A DNA stretch of 20,122 nucleotides from Elusimicrobiota bacterium (GCA_043819795.1 JBDREN010000149.1:1-20122), one strand, 5' to 3'; shown: positions 4,178 to 13,686, numbered from the stretch's first letter. Numbers and translations are program-made. The notes: a model not told the origin generated them from the letters alone.

Positions 4178-4206
4178 TTGACACGCGCGGCGGGCAATTG
4201 TATAAG
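4178..4206 (+). promoter_or_regulatory. Sigma70-type promoter of the metal-uptake operon
   Basis: TTGACA (4178-4183), a 17-bp spacer and TATAAG (4201-4206), 26 nt before ATG 4233. Confidence 0.8.
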
Positions 4207-4232
4207 CAAGAGGAATACGGGGCATTTTGGAC

Positions 4233-4526
4233 ATGAGGAAGAACCGAAGCGCGTGGGTGAGGCTGGCGGCCGCGGGGCTCGCGCTTTCCTTCGCATATCT
4301 GTACGCGGTGGTCCTTCCGAGCCATCGTCATGCCGATGGCCGGGTCCATGAAGATTGCGTCAGCTGTATCACGGCGGCGCAAGACCTCCAGGCTCCCGCC
4401 ACCGGCGGGACGCTTCCCGAACCGGGACTCCGCCCGGTCGGAGAGACGCCCGCCTTCCGCATCTCGCCCGTCTTGCGGAGGGTCTTCGCCTTCTTCCGCC
4501 TGCGCGCCCCTCCCCTCTTGGGCTAG
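4233..4526 (+). CDS. DUF2946-like small leader protein with a membrane/signal segment, a His/Cys metal motif and a C-terminal RAPP (putative ribosome-arrest peptide)
   Basis: 97 aa: basic N-terminus, hydrophobic LAAAGLALSFAYLYAVVLP, HRHADGRVHEDCVSC, a Pro-rich spacer, then FFRLRAPPLLG*. It is the first gene of a metal transporter operon. Confidence 0.8.
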   Translation: MRKNRSAWVRLAAAGLALSFAYLYAVVLPSHRHADGRVHEDCVSCITAAQDLQAPATGGTLPEPGLRPVGETPAFRISPVLRRVFAFFRLRAPPLLG

Positions 4527-4596
4527 CGGCCGTCCCTCGCTGTAAACAGACGGACAGAGACACCCGCTCCGCGGGTCCCCGACCGATACCAAGAGG
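4514..4596 (+). promoter_or_regulatory. Predicted anti-SD/SD stem sequestering the RBS of the barrel gene
   Basis: CCTCTTGG (4514-4521) is the exact reverse complement of CCAAGAGG (4589-4596), which contains the AAGAGG SD 6 nt before ATG 4603. A small hairpin (ACCCGC-TCC-GCGGGT, 4562-4576) lies between the arms. Confidence 0.6.
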
Positions 4597-4602
4597 TTCC
4601 GC

Positions 4603-5850
4603 ATGATGAAACCATTCGCGAAAAGCGTTCTACTTTTCGGCCTATGCTCGATGATGCCGGCCGCCGTGATCCGAGCCCAAGAGCCGGAGTCCGCCGAGCT
4701 CGAGGCGCTTCGGCGCCGTGCCCGGTCCGAAGCCTCCCAGGAGGAGGCGCGCGAGGAAGTCGAGCAGCTCCCCGTATTCAAGTCCGGAGCCGTGGGGCTT
4801 CAGGCGCTCAACCCGGAGATCAGCGTCACCGGGGACATGTGGGCCCAGTACAAAGACGACCAATCCACGGGCGACACGCACAGGAAGTTCAACTTCCGCG
4901 GCCTGGGGCTGCACATCGAGTCCTACCTGGACCCCTACACTCGGTTCAAGACGGCGATCGGGTTCAATGGGAACGGCGCCGAGTTCGAGGAGGCCTATTT
5001 CATCCGCTACGGGCTGCTGCCGGACGTCAACCTCATGGCCGGCAAATTCCGGCAGCAGTTCGGCGTGGTGAACCGCTGGCACAAGCACGGCCTCGACCAG
5101 TTCGACCACCCCCTGGCTCTGCGGCGGATATTCGGCGACGAGGGGCTCAACCAAATCGGGGCCTCCTTCGAGTGGGCCATGCCCGAGCTCGGGGCGGCCT
5201 CCCAGCAGCTCGACATCCAGACGACGAACGGCACGAACGCGTCGCTGTTCTCCGAGAACAACCGGGAGAAGCCGTCCATCCTCGCGCGCTACAAGAACTA
5301 CCGCGACCTCACGGACGCCACCTACCTGGAGATGGGCCTGAGCGGCCTGGTGGGCTGGAACGACCGATGGACCCTGGCCAGCGGCGCAAAGGTGAACGGC
5401 ACGCGGGCTACCGGCGTCTACGGGGCCGACCTGACGCTCTTCTGGGAGCCCACCGGACGCATGCGCTACCGCGACTTCCTCTGGCGGACCGAGGGCTATG
5501 TGATGACCCGGAGCATCCAGGCCCCGGACGGGTCCGGGCAGGACACCATCAACGCCTGGGGCATGTACTCCAATATCCAGACCAAGGTCTCCCGGACGGT
5601 GGAGGTCGGCCTGCGGGGCGACTTCTACCGCCCGGACACGAAGGCCTATTCGTCCGGGAACCACGCGGTGACGAGGCCCAACCCCTATCAATGGCAGGCG
5701 GGCCCCTACCTCACCTGGCACCAGAGCCCGTTCATCCGTTTCCGCATCGAGTACGACCACCTCGCGGTGAGAGGTCTCGGCGCGCGCGAGGACGTCGTCA
5801 TCGGGCAGGCGATCTTCTCCGCCGGCCCGCACAAGCACGATCGGTATTGA
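4603..5850 (+). CDS. Outer-membrane beta-barrel/porin-like protein associated with metal (Zn-type) uptake
   Basis: Signal peptide (..AVIRA/QEP), a short coiled segment, QALNPEISVTGD, amphipathic beta-strands, His motifs WHKHGLDQFDHP and C-terminal GPHKHDRY with a terminal aromatic residue. It lies directly upstream of a metal-binding protein gene. Confidence 0.72.
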   Translation: MMKPFAKSVLLFGLCSMMPAAVIRAQEPESAELEALRRRARSEASQEEAREEVEQLPVFKSGAVGLQALNPEISVTGDMWAQYKDDQSTGDTHRKFNFRGLGLHIESYLDPYTRFKTAIGFNGNGAEFEEAYFIRYGLLPDVNLMAGKFRQQFGVVNRWHKHGLDQFDHPLALRRIFGDEGLNQIGASFEWAMPELGAASQQLDIQTTNGTNASLFSENNREKPSILARYKNYRDLTDATYLEMGLSGLVGWNDRWTLASGAKVNGTRATGVYGADLTLFWEPTGRMRYRDFLWRTEGYVMTRSIQAPDGSGQDTINAWGMYSNIQTKVSRTVEVGLRGDFYRPDTKAYSSGNHAVTRPNPYQWQAGPYLTWHQSPFIRFRIEYDHLAVRGLGAREDVVIGQAIFSAGPHKHDRY

Positions 5851-5878
5851 TCCTCGTTTTCCCGAAGGAGGCACGCAG

Positions 5879-6931
5879 ATGAGACTAAGCAGACCGATCT
5901 CGACGCTCCTGGCCCTCGGCATCCTCGCCGCGGCGGCCGGCCCGGCCGCGGCGCGGCTGCGGGTGGTCACGACCCTCCCGGACTACGCCGACTTCGTCAA
6001 GCGCATCGGAGGCGACCGCGTCTCGGTCGAGCATATCGTGCTGGGCGACCAGGACGCGCACTTCATCCGGCCCAAGCCGTCGTTCGTTAACCTGGTCCGA
6101 AAGGCCGACGTCCTCGTGGAGACCGGGCTCGACCTGGAACTGTGGCTTCCCACCGTGGTGGACCGGTCCGGCAACACGCGGGTCCGCAGCGGGCAGGAGG
6201 GCTACGTCTCCGCGGCGCAGGGGATGCCCCTCCTGGAGAAGCCCGGCGTCATGTCCCGCAGCGAGGGCGGCGTGCACATCTACGGCAATACCCACGTGAC
6301 CTGCAGCCCGCTGCAGATGCGTATCGCGGCGCGCAACATCGCCAACGGCCTGATCAAGAACGACCCAGAGGGCAAGACGGCCTACCTTGAGAACCTGAAA
6401 GCGCTGGAGGACGAGCTCGACAGGCGCATCTTCGGCGCGGAGCTGGTCCGGCTCCTGGGCGGCGAGACCCTCGCGGACCTGGCCCAGAAAGGGCGGGTCG
6501 TGGCCTTCCTTGAAGAGAACGAGTACAAAGGCGCACCCATGATCGAGCGGCTCGGCGGGTGGATGAAGGAGATGCTTCCCCTGCGCGGGGCATCCATCGT
6601 GAGCTACCACAAGAACTGGGTCTACTTCCTGAGCCTTTTCGGCCTCAACGAGGCGGGGACGATCGAGCCCAAGCCAGGCATCCCCCCGTCTCCCAAGCAC
6701 GTGACCCGGCTCGTGGAGCTCATGCGCGAACGCGGAATACGCATCATCCTGGCCGCCAATTACTTCGACAAACAGCATGTGCGGACCGTGGCGGCCAAGG
6801 TCGGCGCGGAGCCGGTGATCGTGCCCTTGTACGTTGGAGGCGCGCCCGGAGCGGATGATTACTTCCAGCTCGTCGACCACTGGGTGGCTTCGCTGCTCAA
6901 GGCCGCCCGGAAGGTCGAAGTCGCGCGATAG
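5879..6931 (+). CDS. Metal ABC transporter substrate-binding protein (ZnuA/TroA/PsaA cluster A-I family)
   Basis: Signal peptide, LRVVTTLPDY, GDQDAHFIRPKP, GLDLELWL, GGVHIYGNTH, SYHKNWVYF and IEPKPGIPPSPKH. A GGAGG RBS precedes it. Confidence 0.92.
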   Translation: MRLSRPISTLLALGILAAAAGPAAARLRVVTTLPDYADFVKRIGGDRVSVEHIVLGDQDAHFIRPKPSFVNLVRKADVLVETGLDLELWLPTVVDRSGNTRVRSGQEGYVSAAQGMPLLEKPGVMSRSEGGVHIYGNTHVTCSPLQMRIAARNIANGLIKNDPEGKTAYLENLKALEDELDRRIFGAELVRLLGGETLADLAQKGRVVAFLEENEYKGAPMIERLGGWMKEMLPLRGASIVSYHKNWVYFLSLFGLNEAGTIEPKPGIPPSPKHVTRLVELMRERGIRIILAANYFDKQHVRTVAAKVGAEPVIVPLYVGGAPGADDYFQLVDHWVASLLKAARKVEVAR

Positions 6932-6942
6932 GAGGAGGCGGA

Positions 6943-7761
6943 TTGCCCGAAGTCGTCACGTTCTTTCTGGCCCAGCTGTCGCTCTTGGCGGTGGTTCTGG
7001 TGCTCCATACCTATATGGGGCTGCACATCATCCGCCGGGGCCTGATCTTCTGCGACTTGGCCCTGGACCAGCTGGCGGCCCTGGGAGCCATCGTCGGGCT
7101 GGGCCTGGGGGTCGAGTACGGCTCCGCGGGGTCCTACCTGCTCTCTTTGGCGGCCGTGACGGTGGGCGCGGCGCTCCTGGCCGTGGTCAAGCCCAAGAGC
7201 CGCCTCATCCCGCGCGAAGCGGTGATCGGCATCCTCTACGGCTTGGCCCTGGCGGCCTCGCTCATGACCACAGACAAGCTCTCGCGAGGGGCGGACTACC
7301 TCACCAAGACCCTGACCGGTTCGCTCCTGTGGGTCACCTGGCCGCTCATCGTGACCACGGCGGTCGTCTACGCGGGCCTCATCGTGTTCCACTTCGTGTA
7401 CCGCGAGAGGTTCGTGAGCCTGGCCGAAGAGCCCGGCAAGCTGAAGCGGGAAGAGCTATGGGACTTCCTGTTCTTCGCCTCCCAGGGCGTCATCACGATC
7501 CTCATCGTGCCCATCGCGGGGGTCCTTCTGGCCTTCGGTTTCCTCATGATCCCGGCGGCCATGGCTACCATGTTCACGCGCGGCTGGGTCCGCGGGACGG
7601 TCCTAGGCTGGTCGCTGGGCTTCGTGGCCTGCGTGCTCGGCGTGACGGCCTCATATCTACTGAACTGGCCCTACGGGCCCACGCTGCTGCTCTCGCTGGG
7701 CCTGTTCTTCTTCTGCGCCTTGGCCCTGCGCGCCCTGCTCCCGACGGGAGGCTCCGCATGA
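6943..7761 (+). CDS. Metal ABC transporter permease (ZnuB/ABC-3 family), subunit 1
   Basis: TTG start after GGAGGAGG. Motifs GLHIIRRGLIFCDLALDQLAALG, EAVIGILY and GVLLAFGFLMIPA; highly hydrophobic. Confidence 0.88.
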   Translation: MPEVVTFFLAQLSLLAVVLVLHTYMGLHIIRRGLIFCDLALDQLAALGAIVGLGLGVEYGSAGSYLLSLAAVTVGAALLAVVKPKSRLIPREAVIGILYGLALAASLMTTDKLSRGADYLTKTLTGSLLWVTWPLIVTTAVVYAGLIVFHFVYRERFVSLAEEPGKLKREELWDFLFFASQGVITILIVPIAGVLLAFGFLMIPAAMATMFTRGWVRGTVLGWSLGFVACVLGVTASYLLNWPYGPTLLLSLGLFFFCALALRALLPTGGSA

Positions 7762-8582
7762 CGGGCTTTTTGCAGTTCATGCTCTTGCCGCTCTGCGCGT
7801 GCCTGCTGATGATCATGATCCTCGCCTACCTGGGCATGCACGTGCTGGAGCGGGAGATCATCTTCATAGACATCGCCCTGGCCCAGATCGCGGTGGTGGG
7901 CGCCATCGTCGCCATGGTGGCCTTCCACGCCGAGCATCACACCCTCCTGGCCAACCTGTGCGCCTTCGGCGCCACGCTCCTGGCGGCGGCCTTCTACGCC
8001 TTGGCGCAAAAAGGGGTGCGGGGGCTGTCGATCGAGACGATCATCGGGATCAGCTACGCCGTGGCCGCGGCCGCGGCGCTCCTCTTCGTGGGCCTGAGCG
8101 CGGAAGGCCACGCCCACGTGCACCATATGCTCAGCGGCAGCCTCCTTTGGATCAGCTGGAAGGAGCTCCTGTATTGCTGCGCCGCGGCCTTGCCGGCCGG
8201 AGGCGTCTTTCTCGCCTTCCGCGGAAGGTTCTGGGAGCTCTCGCGCGGCCACGCGAAGAGCGGGGCGAAGGCCCGCGAGGGCGCGCTCGGGTGGAACCTC
8301 CTGTTCTACGCGCTCCTCGGCGTCGTGATCACCGCCTTCGTCCGGATCGCCGGGGTCCTGGTGGTGTTCTCCTTCCTCATCATGCCCGCGACCTTCGCCG
8401 CCATGTTCTCGGAAAGCCTGGGGCGGCGCTGGGCCGTCGCCTGCCTGTGCGGAGCCGCGGCGTCGGTCGCGGGCCTTCTCTTCTCCTACTATCTCGACTT
8501 CTCGGTGGGACCTTCGGTGGTGTCCTTCCTCGGCGCGGCGCTGGTCGCCGGCGCCGCGGTCAAGCGCCTCACCGCCGGATAG
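7758..8582 (+). CDS. Metal ABC transporter permease (ZnuB/ABC-3 family), subunit 2, with His-rich loops
   Basis: ATGA overlap with the previous gene, 274 aa starting MTGFLQFM. Motifs YLGMHVLEREIIFIDIALAQIA, ETIIGISY and GVLVVFSFLIMPA. Loops FHAEHH and EGHAHVHH. Confidence 0.88.
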   Translation: MTGFLQFMLLPLCACLLMIMILAYLGMHVLEREIIFIDIALAQIAVVGAIVAMVAFHAEHHTLLANLCAFGATLLAAAFYALAQKGVRGLSIETIIGISYAVAAAAALLFVGLSAEGHAHVHHMLSGSLLWISWKELLYCCAAALPAGGVFLAFRGRFWELSRGHAKSGAKAREGALGWNLLFYALLGVVITAFVRIAGVLVVFSFLIMPATFAAMFSESLGRRWAVACLCGAAASVAGLLFSYYLDFSVGPSVVSFLGAALVAGAAVKRLTAG

Positions 8583-8632
8583 GCGGCCGCCGGCGGGCCG
8601 CTCGTCGTCCTTCTTGGGGTCCTCGGAGCGGT

Positions 8633-9664
8633 TTACAGCGCGGAAAGGAGCGCCTTCGCGCGGGCGGCCCAGCTGGAGTCGCCCAAGATCGAGACCGCGC
8701 CTTGGAGATAGCCGACCGCCCTGGAGCGCGTCTTCTTCTTCTTGAGGTAGTGCTTCCCCAGGCGGAACGAGATTTCCGCCTCCACATCCTTCTTGTCCCT
8801 CTCGCGGTAGGTCTCGGTGTTCCACCAGCGCGCCTCGTCGCCGCGCACCAGCTTCTCCAGGAAGTGGAGGTCCTTGACGCCCCGCTTGCGGCGCAGCCGC
8901 CACCGCGGCAGGAACATCTGGTTGGTGGCCCGGGTCACCCGGACGGGCACGCTGTTGGGCGCCCGCTCGACGGCCTTGTCCATCCGCCGGATCCCGCGCT
9001 GAAGCCAGAACCACTTCTTGATGGGGTTCCACGAGTCCCGCGCGACGAGGACCTCGGAGCTCCCAAGATAGGCCGGCAGCTCCTCGTCTTCGGGCGCGAG
9101 CTTGACGGCCCGGCCCAGATACTTGAACGCCATCTTGGAGAAACCCTTGGACCGATGCTTGTAGCTGGCCTGATGGTAGGCGATCCCGAGCCGCTTGTTC
9201 GCCAAGGGATCGTCCGGACGCGCGGTCACCGCCTTCTCCAGATGCTCGATGAAGCGCCCCCATGCTTCGGGGGCGTCGGCGCCAGCGGGGCCTCCCGAGC
9301 CCTTGGGACCGCTGGCGGCCCTGGAGCCCTCCGTCGCTTTGGGGGCCTCGGCCGCTTTGGAGCCCTCGGCGGCCTGGGAACCGCCCGAGGACTGGGAACT
9401 ACTGGCGGCCCTGGAGCCCTCCGTCGCCTTAGGGGCCTCGGCCGCCCTGGACCCCTCGGCGGCCTGGGAGCCGTCGGCCGTCTGAGGTCGGTCGAAGTGA
9501 TCCAGAGTGATCTTGCCGTCCCCGCCTATGACCTTCTTCTCGCCGTAATCGATGAGGACGATCTCGCCCCCCGGCGGCCGGCACGCCGGCGAGGACACCG
9601 CCACGGAAGCCGGCAGGAAGGCGGCGGCCAGACCGCCGGCAAGCATCCATACCACTCTGTTCAT
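8633..9664 (-). CDS. Exported hypothetical protein with a low-complexity Ala/Ser/Glu/Gly linker and a TPR-like helical domain
   Basis: Start MNRVVWML at 9664 after GGGAGGG, with a hydrophobic N-terminus. TPR-like segments LEKAVTARPDDPLANKRLGIAY, LGRAVKLAPED and MDKAVERAPNS. Confidence 0.75.
   Translation of the reverse strand: MNRVVWMLAGGLAAAFLPASVAVSSPACRPPGGEIVLIDYGEKKVIGGDGKITLDHFDRPQTADGSQAAEGSRAAEAPKATEGSRAASSSQSSGGSQAAEGSKAAEAPKATEGSRAASGPKGSGGPAGADAPEAWGRFIEHLEKAVTARPDDPLANKRLGIAYHQASYKHRSKGFSKMAFKYLGRAVKLAPEDEELPAYLGSSEVLVARDSWNPIKKWFWLQRGIRRMDKAVERAPNSVPVRVTRATNQMFLPRWRLRRKRGVKDLHFLEKLVRGDEARWWNTETYRERDKKDVEAEISFRLGKHYLKKKKTRSRAVGYLQGAVSILGDSSWAARAKALLSAL
9312..9472 (-). repeat. Intragenic 90-bp-period duplication in the low-complexity linker
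   Basis: CTGGCGGCCCTGGAGCCCTCCGTCGC occurs at 9312 and 9402. It encodes GSQAAEGS(R/K)AAEAPKATEGSRAAS twice. Confidence 0.85.
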
Positions 9665-9825
9665 GATCCCTCCCCGCCCCTCAGAAAGAAGCCTGCGGCA
9701 TTGTACGTATTGACGATGACGCCCGGCAACCCGGCTCCCGGGACGAGCGCTCCGGCGTCGGGACATCGCTTTTCGAATTGTTAAAATGTCTTATCCGCCG
9801 CTTGAGCGGAGCCGCCGCCCATACC

Positions 9826-11177: not shown

Positions 11178-13686
11178 ATGAACGCGATATCCTGGCGGGA
11201 CAAGACGATCTATTTCATCCTCACCGACCGCTTCTGCAACGGCGATACGTCCAACGACGATTTCAGGAAAGGCGAGTACGACCCCGGCAACGACGACTGC
11301 TATCAGGGCGGCGACCTCAAGGGCGTCGCCCGGAGGCTCCCCTTCATCAAAAGCCTGGGCTTCGACGACATCTGGATCACCCCGCCCGTGCACAACCAGT
11401 GGATCAACCCGTACGTTCCGACGCGCGGCTTCCACGGCTACTGGGCCTACGATTTCATGCGGGTGGACCCGCACCTGGGGACGCTGGCGGACTACAGGGC
11501 GCTGGTGGCCGAGGCGCACCGCCTCGGCATCAAGGTCATCCAGGACATCGTGGTCAACCACACGGGGAACTACTTCACCGTGGACGAGAAAGGCTACGAC
11601 CCGAAGCATCCCGAACGGAACTGGAGGGAGCTCGCGGAGTCCTATCCGCCCGGCGAATCGCCCAAGGCGCCCAACGATCCCGTGTTCCGCATGAACAACC
11701 CGAACATCCCGGAGCACCGGAAGGCGGCGGCCTACAACTTCACGCCCAACATCTCGGACTTCAAGAGCCGGAAGCAGACCCTCACCTATTCGATGGGGGA
11801 CCTCGACGACATCAACCTGCGCAGCCCCCATCGCCGCGCGGCGCCTCAAGGAGATCTACCGGTACTGGATAGACGAGGTGGGCATCGACGGCTTCCGCGT
11901 GGACACCGTCTATTACACGCCCGAGGACTTCTACGAGGGCTTCCTTTACGACAAGGACCCCGAGAGCCCCGGCGTCAAACGTTTCGCCGAGAAAAAGGGG
12001 ATCAAGGACTTCTTCGTCTTCGGCGAGGTCTGGTGCTACGACTACGCGGCGATCAACCGCTACCTCAAGGACGGCCGCACGGTCCGCCTGGATTCGGCCA
12101 TCGACCTGCCGCTCAACGAGGTCCTGAGCAAGGTCTTCTTCCGGAAAGGCCCGACCGATGAGCTCCGGGAGGTCCTCGGGGCGCGCCGACACAACCGGAA
12201 CCTCTGGGTCAACTTCCTGGACAACCACGACGTCGAGCGCATCAACAGCCGGGCCGGCCGGCCGGCGGTGAGGCAGTCCTTGGCGGCCCTCTTCACGCTC
12301 CCGGGGATCCCCTGCGTCACCTACGGGACCGAGGCGGGTTTCAAGGCGGCCAGGCAGAACATGTTCCGGGACGAATGCTGCGATAAGCGCTCCGAGCACT
12401 TCGCATTCCTAAAGGAGATGATCGATTTCCGGAAGAGGCACCCGGCGCTGCGCAGGGGCAGATGCAAGGTCGAGCGGACCTCGCCCGCCGCGGGCGTGCT
12501 GGCCTACTCGGTATTCCACGAGAACGAGCGCTATTTGATGGTGTTCAACACCTCGGCGGACAGGATGTTCCACGACCCCGGATTCCGGGGCCGTGCCGAG
12601 GCCCGGGTTCTGCTCTCGTCGGAAAAAAGAAAGACCGTCTCCGGCCCCATGATCCTGGGGCCGGACTCCTACCTGGTCCTGCGGACGCGCACCCGGAAGG
12701 CCGCGCGCGCCAAGAAGGCGCGCCCTCCGGTGCGGCGTCGACCCCGGCAGGGGCGCCATGCCGGACGCCCTCTGGTCGTGCGTTGGCGGCCGGTGCGGAT
12801 GAGCGCGCTTCCGGGCAAGACCCGCAAGGGCAAGATCGCGATCGACTTCAAGGTCCGCGAGCCGAAGAAGGTCTCGACTCTGTGGCTGCTCGCCGACGAC
12901 GACTACGACGCCAGGCTCCGGGTCCCCGACCCCGCCTCCGGCCGCTACGAGCTGGACACGGCCGGGCTCGGCAACGGAAGGCACCGCATCGCCCTGCTGG
13001 CAAAGACGAAGTCCGGCGCGCTCGCCGCCTCCAACGAGGTCTTTCTCAACGTGGCCAACGACTACCGCCTGATCGCGCGGGCGGCCGTGCCGGAGGAAGG
13101 CAGGGCCGGCGTGGCCCGGAAGCTCCACGCGCCCGGCGATCCGAGCTACGACCGCCAGGTGTCGATGGAGGAAGTAAGCATCCTCACTAGTGGCAAGGAC
13201 CTCCGGATAAAGATTAGAATGTCCAACGTCACCGACGATTGGAACCCGCCCAACGGCTACGACCATGTCTATTTCAGCGTCTTCTTCGATTTCCCGGGAC
13301 GGCCGGGCAAGCGCTTTTTTCCCAAGCTGGACTACGGGCGGGACGATTTCGAGTTCAACGCCGGGTTCCTGCTCTACGGCTGGGGCGCGGTGTCCTTCGG
13401 CGCGGACGACTCGACGCAAGACGCGTACGGGAGCCCCCTGATCGGCGAGGCGGCTCAGCACGCCGACCTGAAGGGCGGGACGATCTCCTTCACGCTCTCG
13501 AAGAAGATCTTCGACGCGCTCGAGACTTTCGCCGGGACGAAGGTATTCCTGTCCACCTGGGACGGCTACCTGGCGGACCTGCGGCCCGTATCGGACAAGA
13601 AGGAGGAATGGAGCTTCTACGCGCTCGACGGCAAGGACGCGAAGGGGCTCCCCAAGGTCTTCGACCACGTGATCATCCGTCTCTGA
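11178..13686 (+). pseudogene. GH13 alpha-amylase/cyclomaltodextrinase-like glycosidase with a C-terminal glucodextranase (DOMON-like) domain; frameshifted near 11829 (pseudogene or sequence error)
   Basis: The first frame has IYFILTDRFCNGD, YQGGDLKG, FHGYW and DIVVNH. The second frame has the catalytic motifs GIDGFRVDT, FGEVW and FLDNHD, plus C-terminal TDDWNPPNGYDHVYFSVFFD. Deleting one C from CCCCC (11825-11829) gives DINLRSPIAARRLKEIYRYWIDEVGIDGFR and a continuous 835-aa ORF. Confidence 0.85.

Follow-up and report, generated by a model that had tools for sequence, protein, structure and literature searches.

A predicted metal-import operon with two ABC-3 permeases, a porin gene and an arrest-peptide-type leader, and no ATPase gene, in an Elusimicrobiota bacterium

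What defines an ATP-binding cassette (ABC) transporter is the ATP-binding cassette itself. The described systems closest to the locus reported here are the metal importers ZnuABC, PsaABC and MntABC (structures 9oko for ZnuBC and 7kyp for PsaBC), the TroABCD system, whose gene set comprises two permease genes plus the ATPase TroB, the leader peptides CruR (Bp2923, Bordetella pertussis) and CutF (Rhodobacter capsulatus), and the phosphate-selective porins OprP and OprO. The present analysis concerns a stretch of 20,122 nucleotides (nt) from an Elusimicrobiota bacterium (GCA_043819795.1, JBDREN010000149.1:1-20122), hereafter the window, which is contig C149 of a 4.99-Mb assembly in 241 contigs, 90.3% complete. 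Between positions 4227 and 8582 it carries five plus-strand genes, separated by 76, 28, 11 and -4 nt, for a leader peptide, a porin-like protein, a periplasmic binding protein and two permeases (perm1 and perm2), the stop codon of perm1 overlapping the start codon of perm2 (Table 1). A motif search detected no Walker A, LSGGQ-type signature or hhhhDE motif in any of the five proteins, in agreement with an earlier note on this DNA, which had claimed that the five genes lack Walker A/B and LSGGQ motifs. The whole window, read in all six frames, is likewise free of Walker A-like motifs, and of 37 PF00005 matches in the genome none falls on this contig. The presence of an ATPase-less five-gene operon in the window is confirmed. 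Its parts (ZnuA-family binding protein, ABC-3 permeases, RAPP leader, porin) are of known kinds; their combination and the missing ATPase are not.

With ZnuABC, PsaABC and MntABC, the operon shares a ZnuA-family binding protein with three histidines and permeases of the ABC-3 family. In contrast to these systems, no cognate ATPase gene was found in the operon or in the genome of the window, the D-x-x-x-H motif of the permeases has become D..LDQ and D..LAQ, the equivalent of the ZnuB coupling helix (residues 154-162) is degenerate in perm2 and shortened in perm1, and genes for a porin and a leader are added. Like TroABCD, the operon holds two different ABC-3 permease genes side by side, which implies a heterodimer, whereas TroB has no counterpart. 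The leader resembles CruR and CutF in its export-type segment, in a CxxC motif followed, 45 residues further on, by an RAPP motif three residues from the end, and in being the first gene of a metal-related operon; as in CutF, a predicted mRNA pairing hides the ribosome-binding site of the next gene. Unlike these leaders, it scores under the DUF2946 cut-off, and what it precedes is neither a TonB-dependent transporter gene nor a multicopper oxidase gene but those of a porin, a binding protein and permeases. The neighbours of DUF2946 genes named in PMC9426467 include TonB-dependent transporters, PepSY_TM proteins and copper chaperones, and the word ABC is absent from its main text; the supplementary neighbourhood data of that paper, which lie outside this check, may list ABC-3 or ZnuA genes. 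A literature search found no paper on an ATPase-less ZnuAB system or on a zinc-linked arrest-peptide leader.

From its gene content we infer that the operon serves metal import, and we read it, with slightly less than even confidence, as a predicted metal importer without an ATPase gene, in which transport would be ATPase-independent and binding-protein-dependent. The neighbourhoods of related two-permease operons were surveyed in 96 loci, 16 of them from species-representative genomes (Planctomycetota, Pirellulales, Phycisphaerae and Sedimentisphaerales, according to the record titles) and 80 from metagenomes. Porin, binding protein, perm1 and perm2 are complete and in this order in 58 of the 96 loci, the remainder being cut by contig ends, and both permeases are present in 85; this complete, same-order recurrence argues that the arrangement is not due to chance. 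No ATPase match lies inside the operon in any of the 96 loci. Anywhere in the flanks, matches were seen at 10 loci, and where 2 kb or more of downstream sequence is present (59 loci), 57 loci show none within 2 kb. Eight of the 10 flank matches belong to a single lineage and are 89-100% identical (L013, L118, L121, L122, L135, L137, L145 and L148); a conventional ZnuC stands nearby in this lineage, in L013 it adjoins another ABC-3 permease, and the fetched flanks yielded no second binding-protein gene. The neighbourhood survey proposed in the earlier note thus gave no ATPase within the operon in 96 two-permease loci, and matches in the flanks of 2 of 20 loci of a one-permease form described below.

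The operon may instead encode an ordinary ABC importer, powered by ATP, with its ATPase gene at another place in the genome; that ATPase could be shared with another transporter or be of a type missed by the ZnuC and FecE probes. We hold this to be a realistic but less likely possibility. The genomes were searched with a ZnuC profile built from eight ZnuC-type ATPases taken from operons in which they adjoin an ABC-3 permease; in leave-one-out scoring these eight known proteins reached 173-376 bits. A single ZnuC probe (from L013) had been dropped because true ZnuC proteins of the phylum score 99-144 bits with it, close to background. The window's genome contains 34 ABC ATPase reading frames, of which frames 1-27 are covered by NCBIfam annotation and frames 28-34 were judged by the ZnuC profile. 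The top profile scores (167, 155 and 130 bits, two domains summed) belong to two-domain ABC-F proteins. The best single-domain ATPase reaches 138 bits, as against the 173-376 bits of true ZnuC proteins; it is PotA-like and adjoins a permease with 12 transmembrane (TM) helices. GldA-like and DrrA-like ATPases follow at 124 bits, each with permeases of its own. Both the low scores and the fact that the better-scoring ATPases adjoin their own permeases speak against a borrowed ATPase. With the ZnuC profile and the FecCD/PBP2 searches, neither a ZnuC-type nor a FecE/BtuD-type ATPase was found in this 90% complete genome, nor was any FecCD or PBP2 homologue. A search of the same genome for orphan ATPases by their TM-rich neighbours, based on a crude hydrophobicity count, gave no convincing candidate. 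On its contig C182 (2045-6100), four tandem Opp/Dpp-type ATPase reading frames were seen, two of them overlapping, and three of the four have no TM-rich reading frame within 3.5 kb by the same crude count.

Among ten related genomes with two-permease operons, a true ZnuC (254-321 bits) stands by a conventional ABC-3 permease in three, and the best profile match in the other seven is 163-178 bits. The search for orphan ZnuC-type ATPases called for by the earlier note therefore returned none in the window's genome and none in seven of the ten related genomes. At the 8 such loci fetched (these seven genomes plus G068), the match is a FecE/BtuD-type ATPase beside FecCD, with PBP2 in 7 of them; an LptB identity for these ATPases of about 280 residues was rejected, since they are of FecE/BtuD type and lie inside PBP2-FecCD-ATPase operons. 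In favour of an unlinked ATPase, such a type II ATPase, present in 7 of the 10 related genomes, would in principle be shareable; in other bacteria, one ATPase is known to serve several sugar importers. The incompleteness of the window's genome and the tandem Opp/Dpp-type frames of C182 count on the same side.

Within the window's own phylum, a perm2 profile (E <= 1e-40) matched 61 of 332 sampled genomes, each at least 90% complete, the window's included, and all of these except the window's have one full-length copy. Twenty loci of this one-permease form, which is common in the phylum, were fetched. The binding protein adjoins the permease in all 20, a porin match is present in 19 (L190 is cut by a contig end), and the strict leader pattern occurs in 14. 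The ZnuC profile was run on five one-permease genomes. In three that are 97-100% complete (G013, G195 and G083) nothing scored above 150 bits, and this lack of a ZnuC- or FecE-type ATPase argues against an importer with an unlinked one; a 202-bit match in G252 sits in a FecCD operon, and a 244-bit match in G075 lies in a second, sister operon of that genome. In sister operons of this kind (L193-L197 and L208), the outer-membrane and periplasmic parts are of like type, and an ABC-3 permease is again present. Unlike the window's operon, they include a ZnuC-type ATPase gene, which follows that of the binding protein and precedes that of the permease (in L208 one extra gene separates binding protein and ATPase), the porin gene standing first, and their docking helix is near-invariant. 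G075 carries an ATPase-bearing sister operon and an ATPase-less operon together. Since the sister operons hold the ATPase inside, an ATPase, when used with such an operon, is encoded in cis, which again speaks against an unlinked one. The TM2 motif of the sister operons reads GVALPQ, with neither Asp nor His.

A second line of evidence comes from the permease helix on which the ATPase docks. According to PMC12236471, ZnuC docks on E. coli ZnuB through helix alpha2, residues 154-162, and this helix was aligned to residues 162-169 of perm2. In ATPase-containing operons, the docking helix of the permease reads VSYDRDMAVTLGR and is almost invariant. The corresponding region of the window's perm2 reads LSRGHAKSG, a form in which the motif no longer has its D, A and G, as also in its two closest homologues; that of perm1 reads FVSLAEEPG, with a 4-residue deletion and loss of the A and G. 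Neither permease of the window has the conserved coupling helix (S.D..A...G). We then grouped permeases by verified neighbourhood and expressed conservation of the docking helix as a ratio, namely the identity in the docking-helix block divided by the identity over the whole protein, leaving out one mistranslated row (L063). The ratio, given here with the identity of the TM2 block, was (i) 1.14 and 0.58 for a mixed set of ATPase-linked permeases (n = 8), (ii) 1.25 and 0.91 for ATPase-linked permeases of one clade (n = 15), (iii) 0.74 and 0.88 for the one-permease ATPase-less form (n = 20), (iv) 0.73 and 0.96 for perm1 (n = 14), and (v) 0.52 and 0.90 for the perm2 family (n = 60). The docking helix is the least conserved block of the ATPase-less permeases, whose TM2 pathway is 88-96% identical, and this, together with the perm1 deletion, counts against an unlinked ATPase. 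By these figures, the docking helix of the ATPase-less permeases is under relaxed constraint and not simply lost, its decay being incomplete, and the evidence leans towards the ATPase-independent branch.

Several observations pull the other way and fit an ATP-driven importer with an ATPase encoded at a distance. The one-permease relatives retain an S.D...A...G skeleton (A in 20/20, G in 19/20), many perm2 homologues still read IS.DY..A...G, and the perm2 model keeps a helix (155-168) after TM5, at lower confidence; this residual skeleton and helix leave room for a cytoplasmic partner of some kind. In 8 of the 96 loci, those of the single lineage mentioned above, ZnuC and its ABC-3 permease form a pair within 3.5 kb, with no second binding-protein gene in the flanks; the ZnuC lies 0.8-3.5 kb from the cluster in varying orientation, which fits a sharing of parts. 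In an assembly of 241 contigs that is 90% complete, an ATPase gene may also be unassembled. No membrane domain of an ABC importer is known to work without an ATPase, and the prior for ATPase-independent transport is low for this reason. The earlier note had left the choice between a borrowed ATPase and an ATPase-independent transporter as an either/or, and this formulation is upheld: a consistently co-occurring ZnuC-type ATPase, named there as refuting it, was sought and not found.

The two permeases share about 33-35% identity. A model of perm2, built on 60 sequences (predicted local distance difference test score, pLDDT, 88; predicted template-modelling score, pTM, 0.85), superposes on PsaC of PsaBC (7kyp) with a template-modelling score of 0.76-0.78 over 260-271 columns, BtuC-type chains superposing less well, and perm2 aligns with E. 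coli ZnuB (9oko). The modelled protein has the PsaC/ZnuB fold, with nine TM helices and a periplasmic helix after TM4. In PsaC, the TM2 residues Asp46 and His50 form a metal coordination site that is conserved in manganese and zinc importers (PMC8346216). This D-x-x-x-H site is altered in the window, where perm1 reads DLALDQ and perm2 DIALAQ, so that the Asp is retained and the His replaced. Across the perm2 family, which has more than 800 homologues, H28, R32, E33, D38 and Q43 are invariant, and a histidine cluster after TM4, GHAHVHH in the window's perm2, is nearly invariant as GGHvH..H.

Two types of perm2 fusion were observed among the relatives. In the first, perm2 continues into an added TM helix and then, at its C terminus, into a part of about 540 residues that is S-adenosylmethionine-methyltransferase-like (PF13847, E 1.4e-17); this part is full-length in L008 (7998-10436), L013, L014, L015 and L018, and L130 has a shorter match of 330 nt. 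In the second (P0077, P0087 and P0109; 437-450 residues), the extra TM helix leads to a part of about 170 residues, containing a linker rich in histidine and acidic residues as well as a conserved domain (about 90 residues) that has no Pfam match. Neither fusion part is an ATPase. By the positive-inside rule both would lie in the periplasm, an odd location for a methyltransferase. This predicted location hints at work on the outer side, and hence at a role other than import: the operon could encode a sensor, a device that releases metal to, or acts as a chaperone for, periplasmic or outer-membrane proteins, or the decaying remnant of an ABC importer. We consider such a role improbable, as a porin, a binding protein of high-affinity type and a leader of metal type together fit uptake best; decay, in particular, is unlikely in view of the intact frames, the 88-96% identity of TM2, the gene order kept in 58 of 96 loci, and the size of the family (over 800 homologues of perm2, over 1400 of the porin).

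The binding protein can be aligned to Synechocystis ZnuA and to further proteins of cluster A-I. Its His61, His139 and His244 align to conserved histidines of Synechocystis ZnuA (2ov1/1pq4), three positions that we take to be zinc ligands. The metal imported is likely zinc, or copper. For the 415-residue product of the preceding gene, the Pfam and NCBIfam scans gave no family match. Its model, built on 44 homologues (pLDDT 82), shows a signal helix or peptide, a helix at residues 30-49 and a 16-strand beta-barrel, and the sequence ends in Y. Foldseek placed OprP and OprO (2o4v and 4rjx) first, with a template-modelling score of about 0.58, followed by other 16-strand porins. The predicted barrel is thus like that of OprP/OprO, whereas identity to them is only 10-11%, no Pfam porin family matches, and an additional N-terminal helical segment, longer in relatives, stands ahead of the barrel. 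At least 1438 homologues were counted, all of them unnamed. That the protein is a 16-strand porin is a supported prediction resting on the model, and to this extent the designation 'porin' given in the earlier note holds. In L098 and L099, a partial second porin homologue (48% identity; 7892-8482, minus strand) lies just 3' of perm2.

The leader, the first gene of the operon, is laid out as a basic N-terminus, a hydrophobic segment, H33xH35, C44xxC47, 45 residues, R93APP96, LLG and stop; the hydrophobic, export-type segment, read by eye from the translation, is LAAAGLALSFAYLYAVVL and follows the basic residues. CruR-type leaders are described, in PMC9426467, as having a CXXC motif and, C-terminally, RAPP, separated from it by about 45 residues and lying about three residues from the end, and as being encoded by the first gene of copper-related operons. 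All these sequence features are present in the window's leader, which points to control by ribosome stalling. The Pfam profile PF11162/DUF2946 matches at 15.7 bits, below its cut-off of 23.7 (E 0.026), over residues 31-96, reaching the end of the profile and stopping on RAPP. The arrest-peptide leader claimed in the earlier note is thus borne out in its CruR hallmarks and the published 45-residue spacing, and not in its DUF2946 score, which stays under the Pfam cut-off. Fifty related loci with at least 450 nt upstream of the porin match were surveyed for the same design. An open reading frame (ORF) with CxxC, 44-49 residues, R[AG]PP, 1-8 residues and stop is present in 39, and 8 further loci have RSPP or RPPP in place of RAPP, which brings the design to 47 of the 50. 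It is missing in L003, L095 and L006. In L003 and L095, a small zinc-ribbon ORF (MPTYEYECAKCGHH...) takes the place of the leader about 300 nt before the porin; L006 has neither. Directly 5' of the leader in L101 stands a Fur-family gene (PF01475, E 1.8e-11; L101:2745-3170), itself preceded by a gene for a 233-residue His-rich membrane protein, and a Fur-family gene was also seen by eye 5' of the leader in L094, L098, L099, L106, L109, L154 and L017. The window itself has no Fur-family gene 5' of the leader.

The final codons of the leader contain a putative anti-Shine-Dalgarno sequence, CCTCTTGG, which is exactly complementary over 8 nt to the Shine-Dalgarno region of the porin gene, CCAAGAGG, and the two are paired in the minimum-energy fold. 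A complement of at least 8 nt was reached in 31 of 5000 shuffles. Among 42 loci, 5 show a perfect complement of 8 nt or more that links the end of the leader to the start region of the porin, compared with 0.6 expected from shuffles and none when the leader segment is shifted 72 nt upstream; for at least 7 nt the figures are 10, 2.5 and 4, respectively. The pairing partners vary from locus to locus, and this speaks for pairing being under selection in a subset. Two points weaken this part of the scheme: the pairing is found in a subset of loci only (at least 7 nt in 10/42), and the fold energy of the leader-porin spacer is no better than that of shuffles (z score -0.27). In the solved RAPP stalls of PMC10951233, R-A-P occupies the P site and the last Pro codon the A site of the ribosome; applied to the window's leader, this geometry would place the ribosome over 4509-4514. 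For CutF, a preprint (10.1101/2025.02.05.636593) proposes that the stalled ribosome uncovers the ribosome-binding site of the next gene.

We therefore propose the following scheme, every step of which is conditional. The leader would be made as an exported or membrane-anchored peptide, and the ribosome would stall on it with R-A-P held in the P site, the A site taking the final Pro codon. Covering the anti-Shine-Dalgarno sequence, the stalled ribosome would free the ribosome-binding site of the porin gene, and the operon would be translated. When metal binds the HxH/CxxC part of the growing leader, the stall would be lifted, as it is in CruR, upon which the anti-Shine-Dalgarno sequence would pair again and the uptake genes would be off when metal is plentiful. 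That the direction is that of CruR, with metal relieving the stall and expression dropping, is the sensible guess for an uptake operon; the sensed metal may not be copper, because the binding protein is of zinc type. The ion would then enter through the porin and be captured by the three histidines of the binding protein, which would dock on the perm1/perm2 heterodimer; through this heterodimer the ion may pass by way of the perm2 histidine cluster and the invariant TM2 residues (H28, R32, E33, D38 and Q43 in perm2; D..DQ in perm1), driven by the membrane potential or by proton coupling and not by an ATPase. On this scheme, which we hold as a near-even proposition falling a little short of balance, perm1, perm2 and the ZnuA-like protein would form a new class of transporter, the membrane domain of an ABC importer minus its ATPase, working as a uniporter gated by the binding protein, or as a proton-coupled carrier, with the membrane potential as driving force, with a porin of its own and a metal-sensing arrest-peptide switch.

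The features of the operon are collected in Table 1. The linkage of the five genes and the presence of a convergent gene, both claimed in the earlier note, were found as described there; the promoter, called clear in that note, is a reading by eye, and a stricter consensus scan of the operon region returned 0 sites, because the final base of the -10 hexamer is G. The convergent gene (8633-9766, minus strand) ends 50 nt beyond perm2, and its matches to tetratricopeptide repeats are weak and below cut-off; the N-terminal part of its product contains repeated SQAAEGS(R/K)AAEAPKATEGSRAAS units. Upstream, on the opposite strand, lies a flavoprotein-type gene (Pyr_redox_2). Elsewhere in the window, an alpha-amylase family gene is spread over two overlapping frames (11178-12161 and 11878-13686, plus strand), for which a frameshift or an assembly error is possible.

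Table 1. Genes and candidate signals of the ATPase-less operon, numbered from the first nucleotide of the window
Feature	Position	Strand	Basis
Promoter-like TTGACA-17 nt-TATAAG	4178..4206	+	read from sequence by eye
Leader ORF, 99 residues, CruR/DUF2946 type	4227..4526	+	sequence motifs
Putative anti-Shine-Dalgarno CCTCTTGG in the leader's final codons	4514..4521	+	minimum-energy fold
Predicted porin Shine-Dalgarno region CCAAGAGG, 8 nt ahead of the ATG at 4603	4587..4594	+	minimum-energy fold
Predicted outer-membrane porin, 415 residues	4603..5850	+	AlphaFold model, structural matches
Periplasmic binding protein, ZnuA family, 350 residues	5879..6931	+	PF01297, E 2.6e-44
perm1, ABC-3 permease, 272 residues	6943..7761	+	PF00950, 60.4 bits (cut-off 20.1)
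perm2, ABC-3 permease, 274 residues	7758..8582	+	PF00950, 76 bits (cut-off 20.1)
Terminator-like hairpin with T-rich tail, 3' of perm2	8591..8607	+	consensus scan alone

Overall, widespread and conserved membrane domains of ABC importers, together with binding proteins, that are never accompanied by an ATPase gene, in genomes without a matching ATPase, would need explaining: either metal importers share ATPases, or a type II ABC membrane domain acts as a secondary transporter. The latter, if true, would change annotation, as all such genes are now called 'metal ABC transporter permease', and would provide a naturally occurring case in which the ATPase's contribution to type II importers can be studied. 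The leader would extend RAPP arrest-peptide control from operons of TonB-dependent transporters and multicopper oxidases to a system of porin and binding protein. Sister operons with and without the ATPase allow a direct comparison, and the window adds a two-permease, heterodimer variant.

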